From NCBI GenBank assembly GCA_038061925.1, contig JBBTYD010000005.1:13477-77476 (forward strand): a stretch of 64,000 nucleotides of DNA. The letters are read 5' to 3'. The notes beneath the pieces are model-generated. The model was not told the DNA's origin, ran no database searches, and saw nothing but the letters and a program-made list of their open reading frames with translations. This stretch comes from Patescibacteria group bacterium. GTDB taxonomy: Bacteria > Patescibacteriota > Minisyncoccia > Phycocordibacterales > UBA9973. The position numbers and the translations under genes are program-made. This document shows, one piece after another, positions 16,125 to 43,155 of this stretch (positions within the stretch are counted from its first letter, which is position 1; each line of letters begins with the position of its first letter).

Positions 16125-17192
16125 ATGTCAATCACTAAAACGAAAAACTCTCGCCTCGGCGGAGCCGGCAAAACTGAAGATGTTGTTTTAGACCAGACTC
16201 TGCGCCCTACTCGCTGGGATGAATATATTGGCCAAAAACACATAAAAGACAACGTTAAAATCTTGCTTCGAGCCGCCGAAGAACGCGGACATATTCCCGA
16301 ACATATTCTCTTTTATGGACCTCCGGGGTTAGGTAAAACCACCCTCGCGCACCTTATCGCCAAGGAAACTGGCAGACAAATGAAAATAACTTCTGGACCA
16401 GCCATTGAAAAAGTGGGCGACTTGGCCTCAATTCTCACCAATCTGGCGCCTGGCGACATTCTTTTTATAGATGAAATCCACAGATTGAACAAGATGGTGG
16501 AAGAAATACTCTATCCGGCTATGGAGTCTGGCGTTTTGGACATCATAATCGGCAAAGGTCCATCGGCGCGCACTATTCAGCTCGACCTTCCGCCTTTCAC
16601 ACTCATCGCGGCCACCACTCGGGTCGCCTTAATTTCTTCGCCCCTCCGCTCGCGATTTTCAGGCGGAGTCTTTAGATTGGAATTTTATTCAAATGAAGAA
16701 ATTGAAAAAATAATCGAAAGATCAAGCAAGCTTCTTGATATTACGCTTGAAGAAAGCGCTTTAAGAGAAATTGCAAAAAGAAGTCGATTCACCCCTCGCA
16801 CCGCAAATTATTTTTTAAAACGCTGTCGGGATTTTGCCCAAGTCAATAAAAAAAGTGAGCAAAAAAACAAAGAAGCCGACCAGCAAAAAAACTTAGATCA
16901 AAAAATAGTCAAAGAGGCGCTGAATATGCTCGCCGTTGATGATATCGGACTTAATCCTTCCGATCGAAAATTTTTAGAAATATTAATTGAAAAATTTAAT
17001 GGCCGGCCGGTGGGACTAAAAACCATCGGAGCGGCGATGTCGGAAGAGGAAGCAACAATAGAGGAAGTAATAGAGCCCTACTTGATTCAGCTCGGCTTGC
17101 TTGAACGGACCGCCCGCGGGCGAGTCGCCACTCGGAAAGCGTACGAACATTTGGGGTTTGATTTTAAAGAAAAGCAAGACAAGCTTTTATAA
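16125..17192 (+). CDS. ruvB: Holliday junction branch migration helicase RuvB
   Basis: Walker A GPPGLGKTT, Walker B LFIDEIHRL, sensor region and the C-terminal winged helix RTPRTANYFLKRCRDFA. Carries a K/Q-rich low-complexity insertion (KKSEQKNKEADQQKNLDQK). Confidence 0.9.
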   Translation: MSITKTKNSRLGGAGKTEDVVLDQTLRPTRWDEYIGQKHIKDNVKILLRAAEERGHIPEHILFYGPPGLGKTTLAHLIAKETGRQMKITSGPAIEKVGDLASILTNLAPGDILFIDEIHRLNKMVEEILYPAMESGVLDIIIGKGPSARTIQLDLPPFTLIAATTRVALISSPLRSRFSGGVFRLEFYSNEEIEKIIERSSKLLDITLEESALREIAKRSRFTPRTANYFLKRCRDFAQVNKKSEQKNKEADQQKNLDQKIVKEALNMLAVDDIGLNPSDRKFLEILIEKFNGRPVGLKTIGAAMSEEEATIEEVIEPYLIQLGLLERTARGRVATRKAYEHLGFDFKEKQDKLL

Positions 17193-17204
17193 TAAATTTC
17201 ATAA

Positions 17205-17226
17205 GATTTCCGCATATGCGGAAATC
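17205..17226 (+). terminator. Perfect 22-nt palindrome downstream of ruvB, candidate intrinsic terminator
   Basis: gatttccgcatatgcggaaatc lies 13 nt after the ruvB stop and is followed by a T-rich stretch (tagatttttaattttt). Confidence 0.45.
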
Positions 17227-17582
17227 TTAGGTAGATTTTTAATTTTTAGGTAAAAAGGAAATGAAAAAGCCGTTGGTGCTCTTTCTTTTGGAAAGTCCTA
17301 ACGGGCTTTAGATTATTAGCCGGGGCGGTTTCTGTGACCGCCCCGACGTTCTTTACTGTTTGGGACTGTCCTGACGTTGGCCGTTGGCGAATCAATGGTT
17401 GGAGTTGTTTATGGTATTCATAGGCGGAAAACACAGCTCTCTGCATCTAGATTCAACACAGGTTGATATCACGTCAAAGAGCTATACTACTTTCAATAAT
17501 AATGATATATGTATATATGTATATATGTCAATTCTGCCTGTGGATAACCAAAATCATTTTAAAAATGATAAAATCATCTATT

Positions 17583-18104
17583 ATGAGAATTTTAGGAATT
17601 GACCCTGGATTTGAAAGATTGGGCATTGCTGTATTAGAAAAAGCGGACAAGACCATTTTCGTTTCCTCCTTCGCTCAAGGCTCCGGCGCGCCAAAGAAAG
17701 AACAGGTGATTTTTTCTGAATGTTTCAAGACTTCGGCCAAGTTGGAATTTTCGGAACGGTTGAATTTAATCGGTCGAGAGGTGAGAAAAATAATAAAAGA
17801 ATACAAACCGGAAGTCTTGGCGATTGAAACTTTGTTTTTAAATACCAACCAGAAAACGGTAATGCGCGTCGCGGAAGCGCGGGGAGTGGTAACTTATGAA
17901 GCATCCCTGGCCGGACTTCGGATCTTTGAAGCTTCGCCACCCCAAATAAAAATAGCCACGACTGGCGATGGCCGAGCGAATAAAACACAAATGATGAAAA
18001 TGGTTAAAATACTGGTCAAAATGGACAAAACTAAAACGTCCGATGATGAGATGGACGCTATTGCGATAGCTTTAACCGCTTTCGCGCATTTGAAATTATC
18101 CTAA
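17583..18104 (+). CDS. ruvC: Crossover junction endodeoxyribonuclease RuvC
   Basis: MRILGIDPGFERLGIAVLE (catalytic Asp), ...AIETLF... (Glu) and the C-terminal DEMDAIAIAL (Asp/His). The ORF-track start at 17463 adds 40 residues without homology. Confidence 0.8.
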   Translation: MRILGIDPGFERLGIAVLEKADKTIFVSSFAQGSGAPKKEQVIFSECFKTSAKLEFSERLNLIGREVRKIIKEYKPEVLAIETLFLNTNQKTVMRVAEARGVVTYEASLAGLRIFEASPPQIKIATTGDGRANKTQMMKMVKILVKMDKTKTSDDEMDAIAIALTAFAHLKLS

Positions 18105-18229
18105 GTGAGTAAGTTATCCACATATTCTATTGCCAAGCTTTTTAGATTTTGGTACAAAGTAGGAAATCCAGCTAAAGACTAGTCCGCCCAGAGCGGAAAA
18201 TAAAAATTATCAATTAATTACTAAAAAAT

Positions 18230-18370
18230 ATGAGTCACGACGAAGATGAAGAAACAGAAAGCGGTTTTAAAGTGGGCGTTGATAATGATGAACTGGAAGA
18301 ACCGTTAGATGCGCCGGAAGAAATTTCTGATTTTGGATTAGATGAAGAAGATCCGGATAAAGACAGATAA
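18230..18370 (+). CDS. Small highly acidic hypothetical protein (46 aa)
   Basis: ATG...TAA ORF encoding MSHDEDEETESGFKVGVDNDELEEPLDAPEEISDFGLDEEDPDKDR. It ends exactly at a strong bidirectional terminator. Too short to appear in the ORF track. Confidence 0.25.
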   Translation: MSHDEDEETESGFKVGVDNDELEEPLDAPEEISDFGLDEEDPDKDR

Positions 18371-18404
18371 AAAACGCTCCCTGGGGGCGTTTTTTATCTG
18401 TCTA
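18361..18404. terminator. Bidirectional intrinsic terminator (long perfect inverted repeat)
   Basis: agacagataaaaaacgctccctgggggcgttttttatctgtct has a GC stem (CGCUCC/GGGGCG) flanked by an A-run and a U-run. It sits between the convergent small ORF (+) and tyrS (-). Confidence 0.6.
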
Positions 18405-22157: not shown

Positions 22158-23255
22158 TCACCTATTCATCGGCATAATGAGATAAATAAATGACGAATCA
22201 GAAACTGGAGATATGACTAACGGGCTCGATGCCCCGGAAAATCTGATGGACATACTATCGGTGGTGATTGACTGGAAACAATCTAAAAAATATTTATAAT
22301 TAAAACCAAGCTCAATATTTTCTCCTGTTAGAGCCGCATCCAAATATGTTTTATTTTCTCCAATATCATTATTAGCAGATGATAGTTCAAAAATTTTTTC
22401 GGGTGGAGTAATTTTTAAATTGACTTGGTTAAATTTATCAGAAAAGATATTAGAAATTTTAAGCGCATTTAGTAAATCTTGCTTGAGCACTACAGCATTA
22501 GTCTCCGAGGTTTTGGGAATAATCTGACGATAATCGGGGAAAACTCCATCAATTACCCGGGAAGTCAGATAAACATTATTGGATGAAAAAGAAATTTGGT
22601 TTTTATTAAAACATACTTTTAAGATGGACGAAGACTCCCCAAAAACTTTCAGTATTTCTGAGATATTTTTAAAGGGGATAAGGATCCTGAGAGTTTCAGG
22701 AAGTCCTTTTATTTTAATTTTTTTCTCCGCTAACCTAAAGGAATCAGTAGAAACAAATACTAAATTGTCTTCGTGGGCATACATAAAAACACTTGAAATT
22801 TCGGGCTTTATATTAGATGGAGAGGAGCTGTAATAAACCGATTTTATGCCATCTATTAATTTTTTTGATTCTATTTCAAAATTCATTCCAGAAACTATCG
22901 GAATTGTCGGAAAATCATCATATGGCTGACCTTTTAATTTTATCTTGCTTTTTTTTGTTTGGATAATTAGATTACCATCAGCGCTTTCAAGATAAACATT
23001 TTCATTTTGAAAAACATTAGAAAAAACACCATTTAACACACTTCCAGAAATAGCCAGGATTCCTTCTTTTTCTATTTTGGCGGGAATTTCAACTTCAATC
23101 CCAAGACTTAAATTTGTAGATCGAAGTTTTAAAGACTTACCAGAAGCAACTAAAAGAATTGAACTTAAAACAGGCAGGGTTAAATTCTTACCTGTAATTC
23201 TTTCAACTTGGAAAATTTTGTTTTTTATCTCTTCAATTTTGCATTCTAATTTCAT
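22158..23255 (-). CDS. dnaN: DNA polymerase III beta sliding clamp
   Basis: 365 aa with the DnaN N-terminus MKLECKIEEIKNKIFQVERITGKNLTLPVLSSILLVA and a three-domain length. Immediately downstream of dnaA. Confidence 0.85.
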   Translation of the reverse strand: MKLECKIEEIKNKIFQVERITGKNLTLPVLSSILLVASGKSLKLRSTNLSLGIEVEIPAKIEKEGILAISGSVLNGVFSNVFQNENVYLESADGNLIIQTKKSKIKLKGQPYDDFPTIPIVSGMNFEIESKKLIDGIKSVYYSSSPSNIKPEISSVFMYAHEDNLVFVSTDSFRLAEKKIKIKGLPETLRILIPFKNISEILKVFGESSSILKVCFNKNQISFSSNNVYLTSRVIDGVFPDYRQIIPKTSETNAVVLKQDLLNALKISNIFSDKFNQVNLKITPPEKIFELSSANNDIGENKTYLDAALTGENIELGFNYKYFLDCFQSITTDSMSIRFSGASSPLVISPVSDSSFIYLIMPMNR

Positions 23256-23301
23256 ATATGTTTATATCTCTTATATATAATCTATTATTATTATTATACA
23301 G

Positions 23302-23429
23302 GTGGATAAGTGGATAAGTGGATTTAATTATTATAACATATGTTTATTTTTAATGATTTTAATTTAATTAAATGGTAATAAAACATTACTTATCCACTTT
23401 GTTTAATTTTTTAATATTTTTTATCCACA
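23302..23429. promoter_or_regulatory. DnaA-box cluster between dnaA and dnaN (oriC region)
   Basis: Tandem GTGGATAAG at 23302-23310 and 23310-23318 (reverse complement CTTATCCAC), TTATCCACT at 23390-23398 and a perfect TTATCCACA at 23421-23429, in an AT-rich 196-bp intergenic region. Confidence 0.6.
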
Positions 23430-23451
23430 ATTTTTTTTAACTTATTAGTAG

Positions 23452-24792
23452 TCATTTGAACATAATTCTTATCTGTTCTAGTTCTTGGGATAATTGTGGG
23501 TCATTTTTCAGGTCTGCTTTGATTTTTAAACATGAATGAATAACGGTGGTATGATCCTTCCCGCCAAGTTTTTGTCCAATTAAAGGATAGGACACATTAA
23601 AATCTTCTCGTAGCAGATACATCACTATTTGTCTTGCCTTCACTATTTCTTTTTTTCTAGTTTTCTCGTAAATCGAAGACTCGGCCAGCTGATAATGTTC
23701 ACTTACCACCTTTACAACATCTTTTATAGCGATACTTTTCTTTGGTTTCAGGTTATTCTTTAATAAATTTTTAACTTCAAAAAGCGTTAAAGGTCTATTT
23801 TTTAAACGGTATTGACAAACTATAATATTTAAACTTCCTTCCAGTTCTCGGATATTGCCATCTACCAATCCGGCAATATATTCCAATAAATTTTCTTCTA
23901 AATCAACATTAAGCTCTTGTAATTTCACTTTCAAAATCGCCAGACGAGATTCATACTCTGGTTCAGATATATCTACTATCATACCAGCGGCAAAACGAGA
24001 TTTTAAACGGTCGGCTAGTTCTGGGATATAGTTGGGATGTTTATCAGAAGAAAAGATAATCTGTTTATTGTTTTCATGAAAAGTGTTAAAAGTATGGAAA
24101 AGTTCTTCTTGAATTTTTTCCATTTTGCCAATGAATTGAATATCATCAATGATTAAAAGATCATATTTTCGATATTTTTCTTTAAAAGAATTTGCTTTAT
24201 TATTTTGCATTGAATTGACAAAATCATTGGCAAATTTTTCCAAAGTCATATAATGCACCTTTTTATTTGGATATTTCTCTTTGATGGAATTTCCCACTGC
24301 TTGAATCAGATGGGTTTTGCCGAGTCCCGTTCCCCCATAAATAAAAAAAGGGTTATATTTAGTGCCCGGACTGTCTATGATTGCTTGAGAAGCGGCATAG
24401 GCGAGTTCATTAAAAGATCCCACAATAAAGGAGTTAAAATGATAACGTGGGTTTAAGTTATCTTCGGGATTTATATAAAGATCTTTTAGAGGAAGTTCCT
24501 TATTTACATAGGTTTCGTTTTTTACTATCTCTTCCTTGTTATTTTCTATTTTAACAATAGTATATTCTACTGCGCGCATATTTTCATAGGCATCGGCTAT
24601 AGTTTTGGTGATCAGTTTATGATATTTATTTATAAGCCAATCACGAACAAATTCATTTGGCACACCGATATAAATAATACCCGTGTCTTCTTTAATGATC
24701 GATGTATTTTTAAACCAAGTGCTGAAATTTGCCTTAGATATACCCGTCTCGATTTCAACCAAACAATTTTTCCAAAGTTGCTTTGTATTCAT
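23452..24792 (-). CDS. dnaA: Chromosomal replication initiator protein DnaA
   Basis: AAA+ Walker A GGTGLGKTHL, Walker B LLIIDDIQF, and the C-terminal DNA-binding signature GQKLGGKDHTTVIHSCLKI. Confidence 0.9.
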   Translation of the reverse strand: MNTKQLWKNCLVEIETGISKANFSTWFKNTSIIKEDTGIIYIGVPNEFVRDWLINKYHKLITKTIADAYENMRAVEYTIVKIENNKEEIVKNETYVNKELPLKDLYINPEDNLNPRYHFNSFIVGSFNELAYAASQAIIDSPGTKYNPFFIYGGTGLGKTHLIQAVGNSIKEKYPNKKVHYMTLEKFANDFVNSMQNNKANSFKEKYRKYDLLIIDDIQFIGKMEKIQEELFHTFNTFHENNKQIIFSSDKHPNYIPELADRLKSRFAAGMIVDISEPEYESRLAILKVKLQELNVDLEENLLEYIAGLVDGNIRELEGSLNIIVCQYRLKNRPLTLFEVKNLLKNNLKPKKSIAIKDVVKVVSEHYQLAESSIYEKTRKKEIVKARQIVMYLLREDFNVSYPLIGQKLGGKDHTTVIHSCLKIKADLKNDPQLSQELEQIRIMFK

Positions 24793-43075: not shown

Positions 43076-43155
43076 ATTGCTTTAATTATATGTTTTTGGG
43101 TTCAATTTAGCAATACTTGGGTCTATTTAGTTATCCACACTATTATTGACTTTTG

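Follow-up and report, generated by a model that had tools for sequence, protein, structure and literature searches.

A putative minus-strand small transcription unit between ruvB and ruvC in a Patescibacteria group bacterium and its relatives

The 390-nt spacer that separates ruvB from ruvC in the window (the whole 64,000-nt stretch of contig JBBTYD010000005.1 analysed here, to which all coordinates refer) is best read as a compound region, the core of which (approximately 17250-17550) would be a self-contained transcription unit on the minus strand, convergent to ruvB and divergent from ruvC. The likeliest product of this unit is an RNA of about 240 nt, and the reading as a whole is given a probability of roughly 0.55. 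The anatomy of the unit, its conservation, its strand and its membership of a family are apparent from the sequences compared, and we infer its transcription, its start and end points and its function from agreement with consensus sequences and from conservation. By sequence, the unit is a member of an undescribed family in Nomurabacteria/Paceibacteria, which has no entry in Rfam 15 and was not found in the literature searched. The features on which the argument draws are the following.

16125-17192, plus strand: ruvB (355 aa; Pfam RuvB_N, AAA_lid_4 and RuvB_C), the left border of the spacer
17202-17229, plus strand: perfect palindrome of 28 nt forming a 12-bp stem and a 4-nt loop, with a T-rich tail after it, putative intrinsic terminator of ruvB
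17253-17310, minus strand: T module, a long sequence-conserved terminator hairpin AAAGCCCGUU...AACGGCUUU with an inner CUUUC/GAAAG stem and a U-tract, the putative 3' end of the unit
17321-17345, minus strand: Ha, a GC-clamp hairpin CGGGGCGGU-loop-ACCGCCCCG just upstream of T
17346-17431, minus strand: variable body, A/C-rich, U-poor and mostly unpaired in the predicted fold, unalignable even to the closest relative (L204)
17392-17421, minus strand: vestigial micro-ORF MNTINNSNH (nine codons, no Shine-Dalgarno sequence) with an in-frame TGA followed by 12 further sense codons
17432-17486, minus strand: 5' stem-loop UAUAGCUCUUUG...CAGAGAGCUGUG (predicted fold), beginning approximately 10 nt past the inferred transcription start
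17502-17531, minus strand: predicted sigma-70-type promoter with -35 TTGACA (17531-17526), an 18-nt spacer and -10 TATCAT (17507-17502), agreeing with the consensus at 11 of 12 positions
17539-17547, minus strand: perfect DnaA-box consensus TTATCCACA, 7 nt upstream of the -35, flanked by the unit's promoter and the divergent one of ruvC
17566-17574, plus strand: predicted extended -10 promoter of ruvC, TGATAAAAT, ending 8 nt before the ATG
17583-18104, plus strand: ruvC (173 aa; Pfam RuvC), the right border of the spacer
60289-60466, minus strand: second copy of the unit (5' stem-loop 60393-60466, GC hairpin 60354-60390, T module 60289-60346), between a Sua5/YrdC-type gene and murB

These features divide among a terminator of ruvB, the minus-strand unit and the promoter region of ruvC, and the original prediction, which had assembled them into a single RNA, does not stand in that form. 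Its description of the spacer itself was borne out: both borders of the unusually long gap are confirmed by Pfam with no ruvA between them, the core is GC-rich (0.46-0.54 across approximately 17250-17450, compared to 0.22-0.34 in both flanks), and the region looks non-coding. The two spacer ORFs, one of 66 aa on the minus strand (17246-17446), which extends across the terminator hairpins, and one of 72 aa on the plus strand, had no Pfam match, and in blastp searches among loci the spacer ORFs other than yebC matched no spacer ORF of another locus. The comparison set consisted of about 110 related loci, among which the gap between ruvB and ruvC is a variable slot where the genes may overlap or may be separated by yebC, by the minus-strand unit or by an IS200-like transposase. 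The source organism of the window is a tiny groundwater bacterium.

The two ends of the spacer probably serve the flanking genes. With its hairpin and T-rich tail on the plus strand, the palindrome at 17202-17229 has the form of an intrinsic terminator and is, as far as can be predicted, ruvB's own; because it is perfectly palindromic, it could also halt read-through on the minus strand. The perfect 22-nt palindrome noted earlier at 17205-17226 is real and is the core of this longer one. The palindrome occurs once in the window and is missing in relatives, where the T module adjoins the ruvB stop. A 12-nt match between the palindrome and the start of the micro-ORF (17207-17218 and 17419-17430) is at chance level by a rough estimate and was set aside. 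At the other end, a TGNTAAAAT-like sequence lies close upstream of the ruvC ATG in most spacer-bearing relatives, and ruvC is therefore predicted to have its own promoter; since the extended -10 ends only 8 nt before the ATG, its mRNA appears to be leaderless or nearly so.

Read 5' to 3' on the minus strand, the unit would open with the DnaA-box-type site TTATCCACA, followed after 7 nt by the near-consensus sigma-70 promoter, from which transcription would start near 17495. The 5' stem-loop would head the transcript, an A/C-rich, mostly single-stranded body of approximately 85 nt would follow, and the GC-clamp hairpin and a long, U·G-rich intrinsic terminator with its U-tract would close it. 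Stem-loops of this kind protect 5' ends in other bacteria. The product may act as a small regulatory or protein-binding RNA, with the exposed A/C-rich stretch as its working part; an RNA is the favoured product because the ORF in the window has only nine codons and lacks a ribosome-binding site.

The promoter prediction rests on two good hexamers, on a spacing within the usual 16-18 nt and on position, as at least 13 relatives keep a promoter at the same place and the same distance ahead of the 5' hairpin. Across relatives the spacing between the -35 and the -10 is 14, 16, 18 or 20 nt, set by the length of a (TA)n tract, and two relatives (L126 and L128) differ by one TA unit between otherwise identical flanks. 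The same pair was considered as proof of a cassette swap and dropped, because one homologous-recombination breakpoint would explain it equally well. In the window, the (ATATATGT)x3 microsatellite makes up the -35/-10 spacer; the repeat had been correctly noticed earlier, and its position is 17505-17528 rather than 17503-17526. In Haemophilus influenzae, the hifA/hifB promoter reportedly phase-varies through (TA)n between the -35 and the -10. The unit shares with it a TA-repeat tract as promoter spacer, with length changes in 2-nt steps across relatives, and a position back to back with a divergent gene; unlike hifA/hifB, the tract in the window is interrupted (18 nt), the length variation is seen between relatives, and the divergent ruvC promoter does not overlap the repeat. 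In most relatives that retain the promoter, the TTATCCACA box precedes the -35 by 7-8 nt, and the same arrangement of box and promoter is also found at 18114 and 43131 in the window. An origin of replication was considered for the spacer and rejected, as only a single DnaA box is present there and the real cluster lies in the dnaA-dnaN gap (23256-23451).

Conservation of the hairpins in relatives, the comparison by which the original prediction could be judged, came out in favour of a structured RNA. The 5' hairpin is anchored on YUCUUU in 10 units, in which U·G pairs are frequent and one position is C-G in five, U-A in four and U-G in one; these C-G to U-A swaps are compensatory changes as predicted from the aligned sequences. 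At the other end of the unit, the GC-rich GGGGCGGU hairpin reported earlier is present as Ha. Perfect GC-rich hairpins of this strength occur only five times in the 64 kb, and two of the five sit in the two copies of the unit. Of the 30 related units that were folded, most likewise place a strong hairpin 0-14 nt upstream of T, though its sequence differs.

The T module, which scores 60.3 bits (E = 4e-10) with covariance model R1 in the window, points to the minus strand. Its hairpin is followed by UUUUUCAUUUCCUUUUU, as expected of an intrinsic terminator, and the U-tract lies 3' of the hairpin in the minus sense only. In an alignment of 27 sequences, 93.6% of the cells in the hairpin pair when read as minus-strand RNA (27% of cells being G·U); the plus-strand reading reaches 68.1% and slid controls 41-60%, and conserved pairs turn into A·C mismatches on the plus strand. 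In one relative (L006), the R1 score falls from 58 bits on the minus strand to 24 bits on the plus. Covariation within T is sparse: column pair 11-49 is GC in 22 sequences, CG in three, AU in one and UG in one, double changes occur in just two of the 14 pairs, and one shuffle measure was non-significant (122/500). The scarcity of double changes is attributable to the strong conservation of T in sequence.

Of 80 related ruvB-ruvC spacers, 11 contain T, in each case on the minus strand, and the rest of the 473 kb of related sequence has no further copy. Beyond these spacers and the second copy in the window, metagenomes supplied about 20 more units in varied contexts; approximately 60% of the matches in the metagenome scan belonged to an unrelated human-gut repeat and were discarded. 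Among units from Nomurabacteria-like contigs, about 30 have T together with the 5' stem-loop, with a cargo that is either an ORF of 25-122 aa or no ORF at all. T stands behind an 88-aa ORF in one locus (L101), in a second (L144) it follows a different structured RNA that occupies the same ruvC site, and a third (L105) has, in tandem and with T units, a 122-aa secreted Cys-rich protein, a 63-aa ORF and an ORF-less RNA of approximately 230 nt. The second copy in the window was detected by nhmmer (E = 1.3e-5) and by R1 (50.8 bits) and has a folding z-score of -6.5; it contains neither body nor ORF, has no Rfam match and no consensus promoter, and may be a mere structured 3' UTR of the upstream gene. 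As judged by sequence, what members of the family have in common is the 5' stem-loop and most of all the 3' module (GC hairpin, CAAUC-like linker and sequence-conserved terminator), and the cargo is GC-rich and fast-changing.

The body is where the family varies most, with no conservation even at 83% RuvC identity. Eleven unit bodies average 31% A, 30% C, 23% G and 16% U, and their GC content of 0.53 (0.46 for the body in the window), in genomes with a GC content of 0.37, together with their A/C-richness, suggests that they are not neutral junk. No k-mers are common to the unit bodies, the widely shared 8-mers coming from the promoter and terminator alone; three bodies do share a 9-mer, TTCGCCAAC, but not in a common reading frame. 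Against the start regions of the 79 window ORFs that reach 90 aa or more, the best duplex of the body was no better than those formed by shuffled bodies, and thus neither a conserved seed nor target complementarity of the kind expected of a trans-acting sRNA was found within the window and the unit bodies.

Modular trans-acting and dual-function sRNAs, among them the Hfq-type sRNAs, SgrS/SgrT, RNAIII/hld and SR1/SR1P, offer the closest comparison for such an arrangement. Like them, the unit has its own putative promoter, a 5' stem-loop, an exposed single strand and a Rho-independent terminator that possibly doubles as a protein-binding 3' module, and some family members, like dual-function sRNAs, carry a short ORF. 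Unlike them, its 3' module is conserved in sequence across unrelated bodies and also stands behind ordinary small protein genes, its body is unconserved even between close species, and the family is absent from Rfam 15.

The main rival to an RNA product is a decaying small gene. According to this explanation, the family is a small-protein gene cassette, and the copy in the window is a decaying or non-functional remnant (a nonsense TGA, the ribosome-binding site lost) consisting of a 5' UTR, nine codons and terminators, which is retained for its use to ruvB and ruvC. The micro-ORF is the only ORF beginning after the 5' hairpin, and beyond its TGA the in-frame sense codons go on with C-rich third positions. 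A comparable nine-codon ORF (MNINNRTQN) is found in L126, and the corresponding position in other relatives holds ORFs of 21-54 aa, several of them preceded at 7-9 nt by GGAG or AAGGAG and some called as genes by NCBI annotators; in the closest relative (L204), a 34-aa ORF with a ribosome-binding site is called as a gene. Pooled codons of these ORFs have a purine at position 1 in 71% and G+C at position 3 in 68% of cases, but this period-3 signal fits the opposite strand equally well. The peptides belong to no Pfam or NCBIfam family, and a peptide profile searched against 5.8 billion proteins matched the query peptides alone, which leaves them without a detectable common family. The window copy accordingly lacks the marks of a small-protein gene, having nine codons, no ribosome-binding site and no conserved protein family. 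A type I toxin-antitoxin system was rejected, since the peptides, which are polar and enriched in G, A, T, N and H, contain no transmembrane stretch, and since no antisense promoter was seen. Against decay, the window copy has an undamaged promoter, 5' hairpin, GC hairpin and T, and ORF-less members (L049, L154, L186 and the second copy) keep every RNA feature. In addition, a neutral remnant in an AT-rich, deletion-prone genome would be expected to lose both GC and length, compared to a body that still has the GC content given above. Because several relatives combine a good ribosome-binding site with an ORF of coding-like period-3, the ancestral product may be a peptide and the copy in the window a dying gene; this is unlikely for the window on balance, and if the unit were a decaying small gene only, the finding would be an ordinary one.

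It is improbable that the spacer gives rise to no discrete transcript at all and is simply a stack of terminators for ruvB combined with a promoter and regulatory region for ruvC, which is the outcome that the original prediction had named as its own refutation. Both the palindrome and T are able to form on the plus strand, ruvC has its own predicted promoter in the spacer, and the TTATCCACA box lies near the ruvC promoter, in either orientation, in several relatives. However, the minus-strand -35 and -10 and the 5' hairpin would have no role in such an arrangement, yet they are conserved and covarying, and where other DNA parts the box from ruvC (L006, L013, L018, L024 and L067), it keeps its place beside the minus-strand promoter. 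Approximately 250 extra nucleotides are also unnecessary for a terminator and a promoter, because ruvB and ruvC overlap or lie at most 4 nt apart in at least 17 related loci and others have spacers of just 38-100 nt with the ruvC promoter already inside. It does weigh against the minus-strand unit that T, the GC hairpin and the box could owe part of their persistence to a use in terminating ruvB and regulating ruvC.

A non-autonomous mobile element of the MITE, REP or BIME type, with end hairpins moved by a transposase and an interior of passenger DNA, is quite improbable. Such an element would fit the patchy presence in related spacers, the copies in unrelated contexts and the combination of conserved ends with a variable interior, and an IS200-like Y1 transposase gene with a flanking palindrome of 21-23 nt is found in the same spacer of L006, L011 and L039. 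However, that palindrome differs from T, and the window contains neither it nor the transposase. We saw neither terminal inverted repeats nor target duplications, the ends of the unit bear no relation to each other, the orientation relative to ruvC is constant, and the copy number is low (two in 64 kb, and none outside the spacer in the 473 kb), so that terminal repeats or a REP head, target duplications and many copies, the hallmarks of MITEs and REPs, are all missing. Searches of the T consensus and the unit against phage records, of the spacer against plasmid records, and of a body segment and the T pattern against IMG/VR gave no match. REP/BIME and ERIC sequences are enterobacterial repetitive extragenic palindromes with terminator activity. 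Like these, T is a sequence-conserved imperfect palindrome of approximately 55 nt at the 3' ends of different genes, present more than once per genome and predicted to be transcribed and terminating; unlike REP/BIME, it is very low in copy number, is coupled to an upstream GC hairpin in most units and has no GTAG-type head, and the REP-like palindrome flanking Y1 in relatives is a different sequence.

The original prediction was of a structured ncRNA, possibly 6S-like, a reduced RNase P RNA or a tmRNA. The spacer very likely does encode a small structured transcript with hairpins kept in relatives, but neither the classes proposed nor a plus-strand reading was upheld. An RNA of one of these classes on the plus strand, or a structured ruvB 3' UTR or ruvC leader there, is very improbable. 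The folding z-score of the spacer is lower on the plus strand (-9.4) than on the minus strand (-5.1), with 0 of 100 shuffles equally stable; however, complementarity to an A/C-rich body makes the plus strand G/U-rich, and such a composition would give numerous G·U pairs by chance. Evidence for the minus strand comes from the promoter, the U-tract and the many U·G pairs, as well as from the pairing and R1 scores of T. Rfam 15 was searched on both strands with the whole window at the gathering score, with 17100-17700 at E up to 10, with the second copy and with ten related loci, and returned only tRNAs and sub-threshold matches to terminator hairpins, those in the spacer being weak and all confined to the palindrome at 17202-17229. 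RNase P RNA (RF00010 and RF00011), 6S RNA (RF00013) and SRP RNA were thus each rejected for want of an Rfam match, and tmRNA also because ARAGORN found none in 16900-17900. The likeness to RNase P, 6S and tmRNA consists of the small-RNA size range, a GC content that is high for the genome, and the 9-mer GGAAAGUCC on the plus strand, which we take to resemble RNase P CR-I, a part of P4; the 9-mer is instead the complement of one arm of the conserved terminator. The GGAAAGTCC motif reported earlier is present at 17290-17298 on the plus strand rather than at 17286-17294, lies within the complement of T and pairs locally inside the terminator. Unlike RNase P and 6S RNAs, the fold consists of three independent hairpins and an unpaired body with unpaired ends, with no P1-P4 core and no 6S rod (about 180 nt, termini paired) with a central bubble. 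Nor is the structured core a ruvC leader, as it lies upstream of the ruvC promoter.

A decayed yebC pseudogene is hardly tenable, since neither tblastn nor a profile HMM of 22 YebC ORFs from related loci found anything in six frames of the spacer and the whole window, although an intact yebC of 179 aa lies between ruvB and ruvC in 21 related loci, the most distant ones included, and L030 retains a 16-codon stub. One locus (L052) carries both yebC and a T-like module, which makes the unit an addition beside ruvC and no replacement of yebC. Escherichia coli has a yebC-ruvC operon, and the relatives resemble it in having a YebC/TACO1-family gene directly upstream of ruvC in the same slot; unlike that operon, the slot in the window has no yebC or recognisable remnant, and ruvC has its own predicted promoter.

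The minus-strand unit could be part of something larger. It is conceivable, if distinctly doubtful, that it is a locus of lineage-specific hypervariable cassettes, in which fixed handles (box and promoter, 5' stem-loop, GC hairpin and terminator) would surround rapidly replaced GC-rich cargo (an RNA, a micro-peptide or a small secreted protein) that is turned on and off as slippage of (TA)n or of the 8-mer alters the -35/-10 spacing. Such a locus would be situated in ultra-small, probably host-attached bacteria. If true, a hypervariable cassette with a slippage switch would be a contingency locus of a kind not described for Candidate Phyla Radiation bacteria.

The genomes of the Candidate Phyla Radiation are tiny and tightly packed, and their non-coding RNAs and gene-expression signals are, to our knowledge, almost uncharacterised. 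If the reading of the spacer as a minus-strand unit holds, it would correct the annotation of this region, with the ruvB-ruvC gap as a variable slot and ruvC as an apparently leaderless gene with its own promoter, and would provide a hint of repeat-controlled promoter spacing. It would also provide a concrete small transcription unit, the parts of which are recognisable by sequence and further copies of which can be found with R1, and in which a sequence-conserved 5' stem-loop and terminator module would be reused around very different, fast-evolving cargo.

The window is part of a groundwater genome assembly (Hainich) assigned to Candidatus Nomurabacteria (Patescibacteria/CPR), and its closest ruvC relatives are Nomurabacteria/Paceibacteria MAGs. 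The gap from ruvB to ruvC is 390 nt, and an identical RuvB and an identical spacer are found together on three public contigs. All four features listed for the spacer in the original prediction are present, although the palindrome is longer than proposed (a perfect 28-mer at 17202-17229), and GGAAAGTCC and the (ATATATGT)x3 repeat were placed 4 and 2 nt away from their actual positions (17290-17298 and 17505-17528, respectively); the GC hairpin lies at 17321-17345. The spacer core is indeed GC-rich (0.46-0.54 versus 0.22-0.34 in the flanks), folding beats shuffled sequences on either strand (z = -9.4 plus, -5.1 minus), and perfect GC-rich hairpins of comparable strength are rare (five in 64 kb). 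Known RNA classes were excluded for the spacer by Rfam 15, which returned only tRNAs at gathering score across the whole window, and by ARAGORN, which identified no tmRNA. An Rfam scan of the kind originally suggested found no RNA family on either strand of the spacer, where even at E up to 10 just sub-threshold matches to the ruvB-proximal hairpin appeared, on both strands. The longest spacer ORFs (66 aa minus; 72 aa plus) have no Pfam family.

Using nhmmer and blastn, parts of the window spacer were aligned with the spacers of related loci (L006, L013, L017, L018, L020, L024, L026 and L049). The resulting minus-strand unit and its surroundings are as follows:

16125-17192, plus: ruvB (Pfam)
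17253-17310, minus: T, a terminator module of long hairpin and U-tract, conserved in sequence (60.3 bits with R1, its covariance model)
between 5' stem-loop and GC hairpin, minus: variable body, placed by the order of blocks
upstream of the body, minus: 5' stem-loop, a conserved block anchored on YUCUUU
17531-17502, minus: predicted promoter, TTGACA and TATCAT (-10), with 11/12 consensus positions
17539-17547, minus: TTATCCACA box, a conserved block 7-8 nt upstream of TTGACA
17566-17574: extended -10 TGATAAAAT, downstream of the TTATCCACA box and stopping 8 nt short of the ruvC ATG
17583-18104, plus: ruvC (Pfam)

Pairing in T was assessed with RNAalifold and a pair count across 27 sequences, in which 93.6% of cells are paired (versus 41-60% with slid partners) and both sides have changed in two pairs. 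Because 27% of the cells are G·U, the other strand is only 68% paired. In L006, R1 gives 58 bits for the minus strand versus 24 bits for the plus strand. U·G pairs are also common in the 5' stem-loop, where, at one pair position, five units have C-G, four have U-A and a single one has U-G. The GC hairpin occurs in most units, yet its sequence differs at every locus. Together, the promoter orientation, the U-tract and the wobble pairs point to the minus strand as the source of the unit RNA, while the plus strand probably folds well, judging from composition, because it is G/U-rich, being complementary to an A/C-rich body. The original interpretation is half right: the spacer likely does yield a small structured transcript, but from the opposite strand and of no known class.

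Several of the listed features can be reassigned within this arrangement. GGAAAGTCC is the complement of one T arm, the GC clamp corresponds to the GGGGCGGU hairpin, and the repeat described as a microsatellite is the spacer between the -35 and -10 hexamers. The palindrome, unique to the window genome, is the terminator of ruvB itself; in relatives, T abuts the ruvB stop. One half of the palindrome (17207-17218) also matches the surroundings of the micro-ORF AUG (17419-17430; UUUCCGCCUAUG) over 12 nt (11/12), which by a rough estimate is at chance level and could matter only with minus-strand read-through into the palindrome.

TTGACA and the -10 lie 16 nt apart in eight loci, 14 in L049 and L128, 18 in the window and 20 in L018, and this distance follows the length of the (TA)n tract across loci. 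L126 and L128 are one TA unit apart in flanks otherwise identical for >250 nt; they also differ in a single base beside the -35 and, farther upstream, by an indel of 31 nt. It is possible that the (TA)n tract permits slippage-driven promoter switching. Phase variation of a promoter spacer occurs at hif in H. influenzae, which the (TA)n spacing of the unit resembles, although the differences seen here are known between loci.

The main rival to an RNA product in the window is a decaying small gene. A peptide reading draws on ten ruvC-site units in which an AUG after the 5' hairpin starts an ORF of 9-54 codons, several of them with a properly spaced GGAG or AAGGAG; on a coding-like pooled ORF composition (purine 71% at position 1, G+C 68% at position 3); and on L204, the closest long-contig relative (RuvC 83% identical), where an ORF of 34 aa has been called as a gene. 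However, the period-3 signal fits the opposite strand just as well, ORF lengths among units run from zero to 54 codons, and ORF-less members retain every RNA feature. The relatives' peptides have no Pfam or NCBIfam match, a profile run against 5.8 billion proteins returned the inputs alone, and the bodies, unalignable between the window and L204, share no common k-mer, all of which speaks against a protein family. Given this evidence and the short window ORF (MNTINNSNH*), which lacks a ribosome-binding site and resembles that of L126 (MNINNRTQN*), an RNA product is favoured in the window. Neutral decay of the bodies is in turn argued against by their composition, since all are A/C-rich and U-poor with a GC of 0.53, compared to 0.37 in the genomes. 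No antisense target within the window scored better than shuffled controls.

Among 80 related loci fetched via RuvC, the ruvB-ruvC junction is a variable slot, ranging from a 20-nt overlap up to 2.6 kb; the genes overlap or lie <=4 nt apart in at least 17 loci, at least 10 of these being overlaps. In 21 loci the spacer is occupied by an intact, short YebC/TACO1 gene of 179 aa, a 16-codon YebC stub is left in L030, and L052 contains both yebC and a T match; no YebC remnant was found in any frame of the window spacer. An IS200-like Y1 transposase with a flanking palindrome lies in the spacer of three loci (L006, 2030-2751; L011, 1425-2533; L039, 1666-2265), and the transposase also occurs in L148, L165 and L060. 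This gene (Pfam Y1_Tnp, motif YCLMPNHFHLL) and the TGTCAAGGTTGAACCTTGACA copies on its flanks form what looks like a REP/RAYT arrangement, which is absent from the window. Short GC-rich hairpin repeats (e.g., CCCCTGATAAGGGGG and TTCCCCTCTTGAGGGGTGG), some of them tandem, lie near the ruvC promoter or the ruvB end in L126, L128, L013, L024, L066, L115 and L206.

Because the extended -10 lies just before its ATG, ruvC is apparently transcribed from a promoter of its own into a leaderless mRNA; TGNTAAAAT-like sequences occur a few nt 5' of the ruvC ATG in most spacer-bearing relatives (L004-L083). In spacer-less relatives, ruvB and ruvC share an ATGA overlap. A very acidic, conserved 46-aa ORF (MSHDEDEETESGFKVG...; 18230-18370, plus) lies 3' of ruvC, followed by a 17-bp hairpin (18361-18403); it has no Pfam family, and L204, L205 and L206 have a called gene of 44-46 aa in the corresponding position. 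The layout RGTTATCCACA, then 7 nt on TTGNCN (-35), precedes the unit (box at 17539-17547, minus), a small acidic ORF after ruvC (box at 18114-18122, plus) and a gene near 43.3 kb (box at 43131-43139, plus), recurs in units of relatives, and may mark a gene set under the control of DnaA or another factor. Perfect TTATCCACA sites number six in the window, where we estimate from simple 9-mer odds well under one. The gap (23256-23451) between dnaA (23452-24792, minus) and dnaN (22158-23255, minus), about 5.7 kb from the unit, is AT-rich and has a DnaA-box cluster, which makes it the probable oriC.

The unit is a member of a small family rather than a single locus. Both R1 and nhmmer identified a second T in the window (60289-60346, minus), flanked by a Sua5/YrdC gene and murB; a GC hairpin and a 5' stem-loop lie ahead of it, the latter sharing the UUCUUUGA arm. 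This second copy (60289-60466, minus) contains no ORF, folds into three hairpins (z = -6.5), and may be a structured 3' UTR, since no consensus promoter was found for it. Within 473 kb of relatives' flanks, T was confined to ruvB-ruvC spacers, on the minus strand every time. A metagenome pattern scan yielded ~20 further true units after removal of an unrelated, highly conserved human-gut repeat (AAGTCGCTTAAGACTTCCTTRTTTTAGTTAAANAGRCTTTT; L084, L086, L089 and some 60 further metagenome loci). At the ruvC site, L144 has a structured body of another kind. The GC-hairpin and T module stands behind an inserted 88-aa ORF with housekeeping genes on either side in L101 and after the C-terminal ends of GC-rich ORFs in L147, L159 and L181. 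L105, a 1.97-kb contig (1-1973; 52% GC) from the same groundwater site, holds small units head-to-tail, including three complete cargo units that each end in a GC hairpin and terminator module; their cargo includes a secreted protein of 122 aa that is rich in Cys and follows the same GAGCUCUUUGGCG 5' hairpin, as well as a ~230-nt RNA with no ORF and an ORF of 63 aa. By our own reading, extended -10-like sequences precede at least four units on this contig. The metagenome-derived units had no Rfam match, the T consensus and the unit were both absent from phage records, plasmid records did not contain the spacer, and IMG/VR contained neither a T pattern nor a body segment; among the papers searched on small RNAs, terminators, structured RNAs and intergenic regions in Patescibacteria/CPR/Nomurabacteria, none was found to describe such an element. 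The unit is built of ordinary parts, namely a promoter, 5' stem-loop, GC clamp and terminator. What is unusual is, first, that a small family reuses sequence-conserved parts to frame cargo that is unrelated and changes fast and, second, that a simple repeat serves as the promoter spacer.
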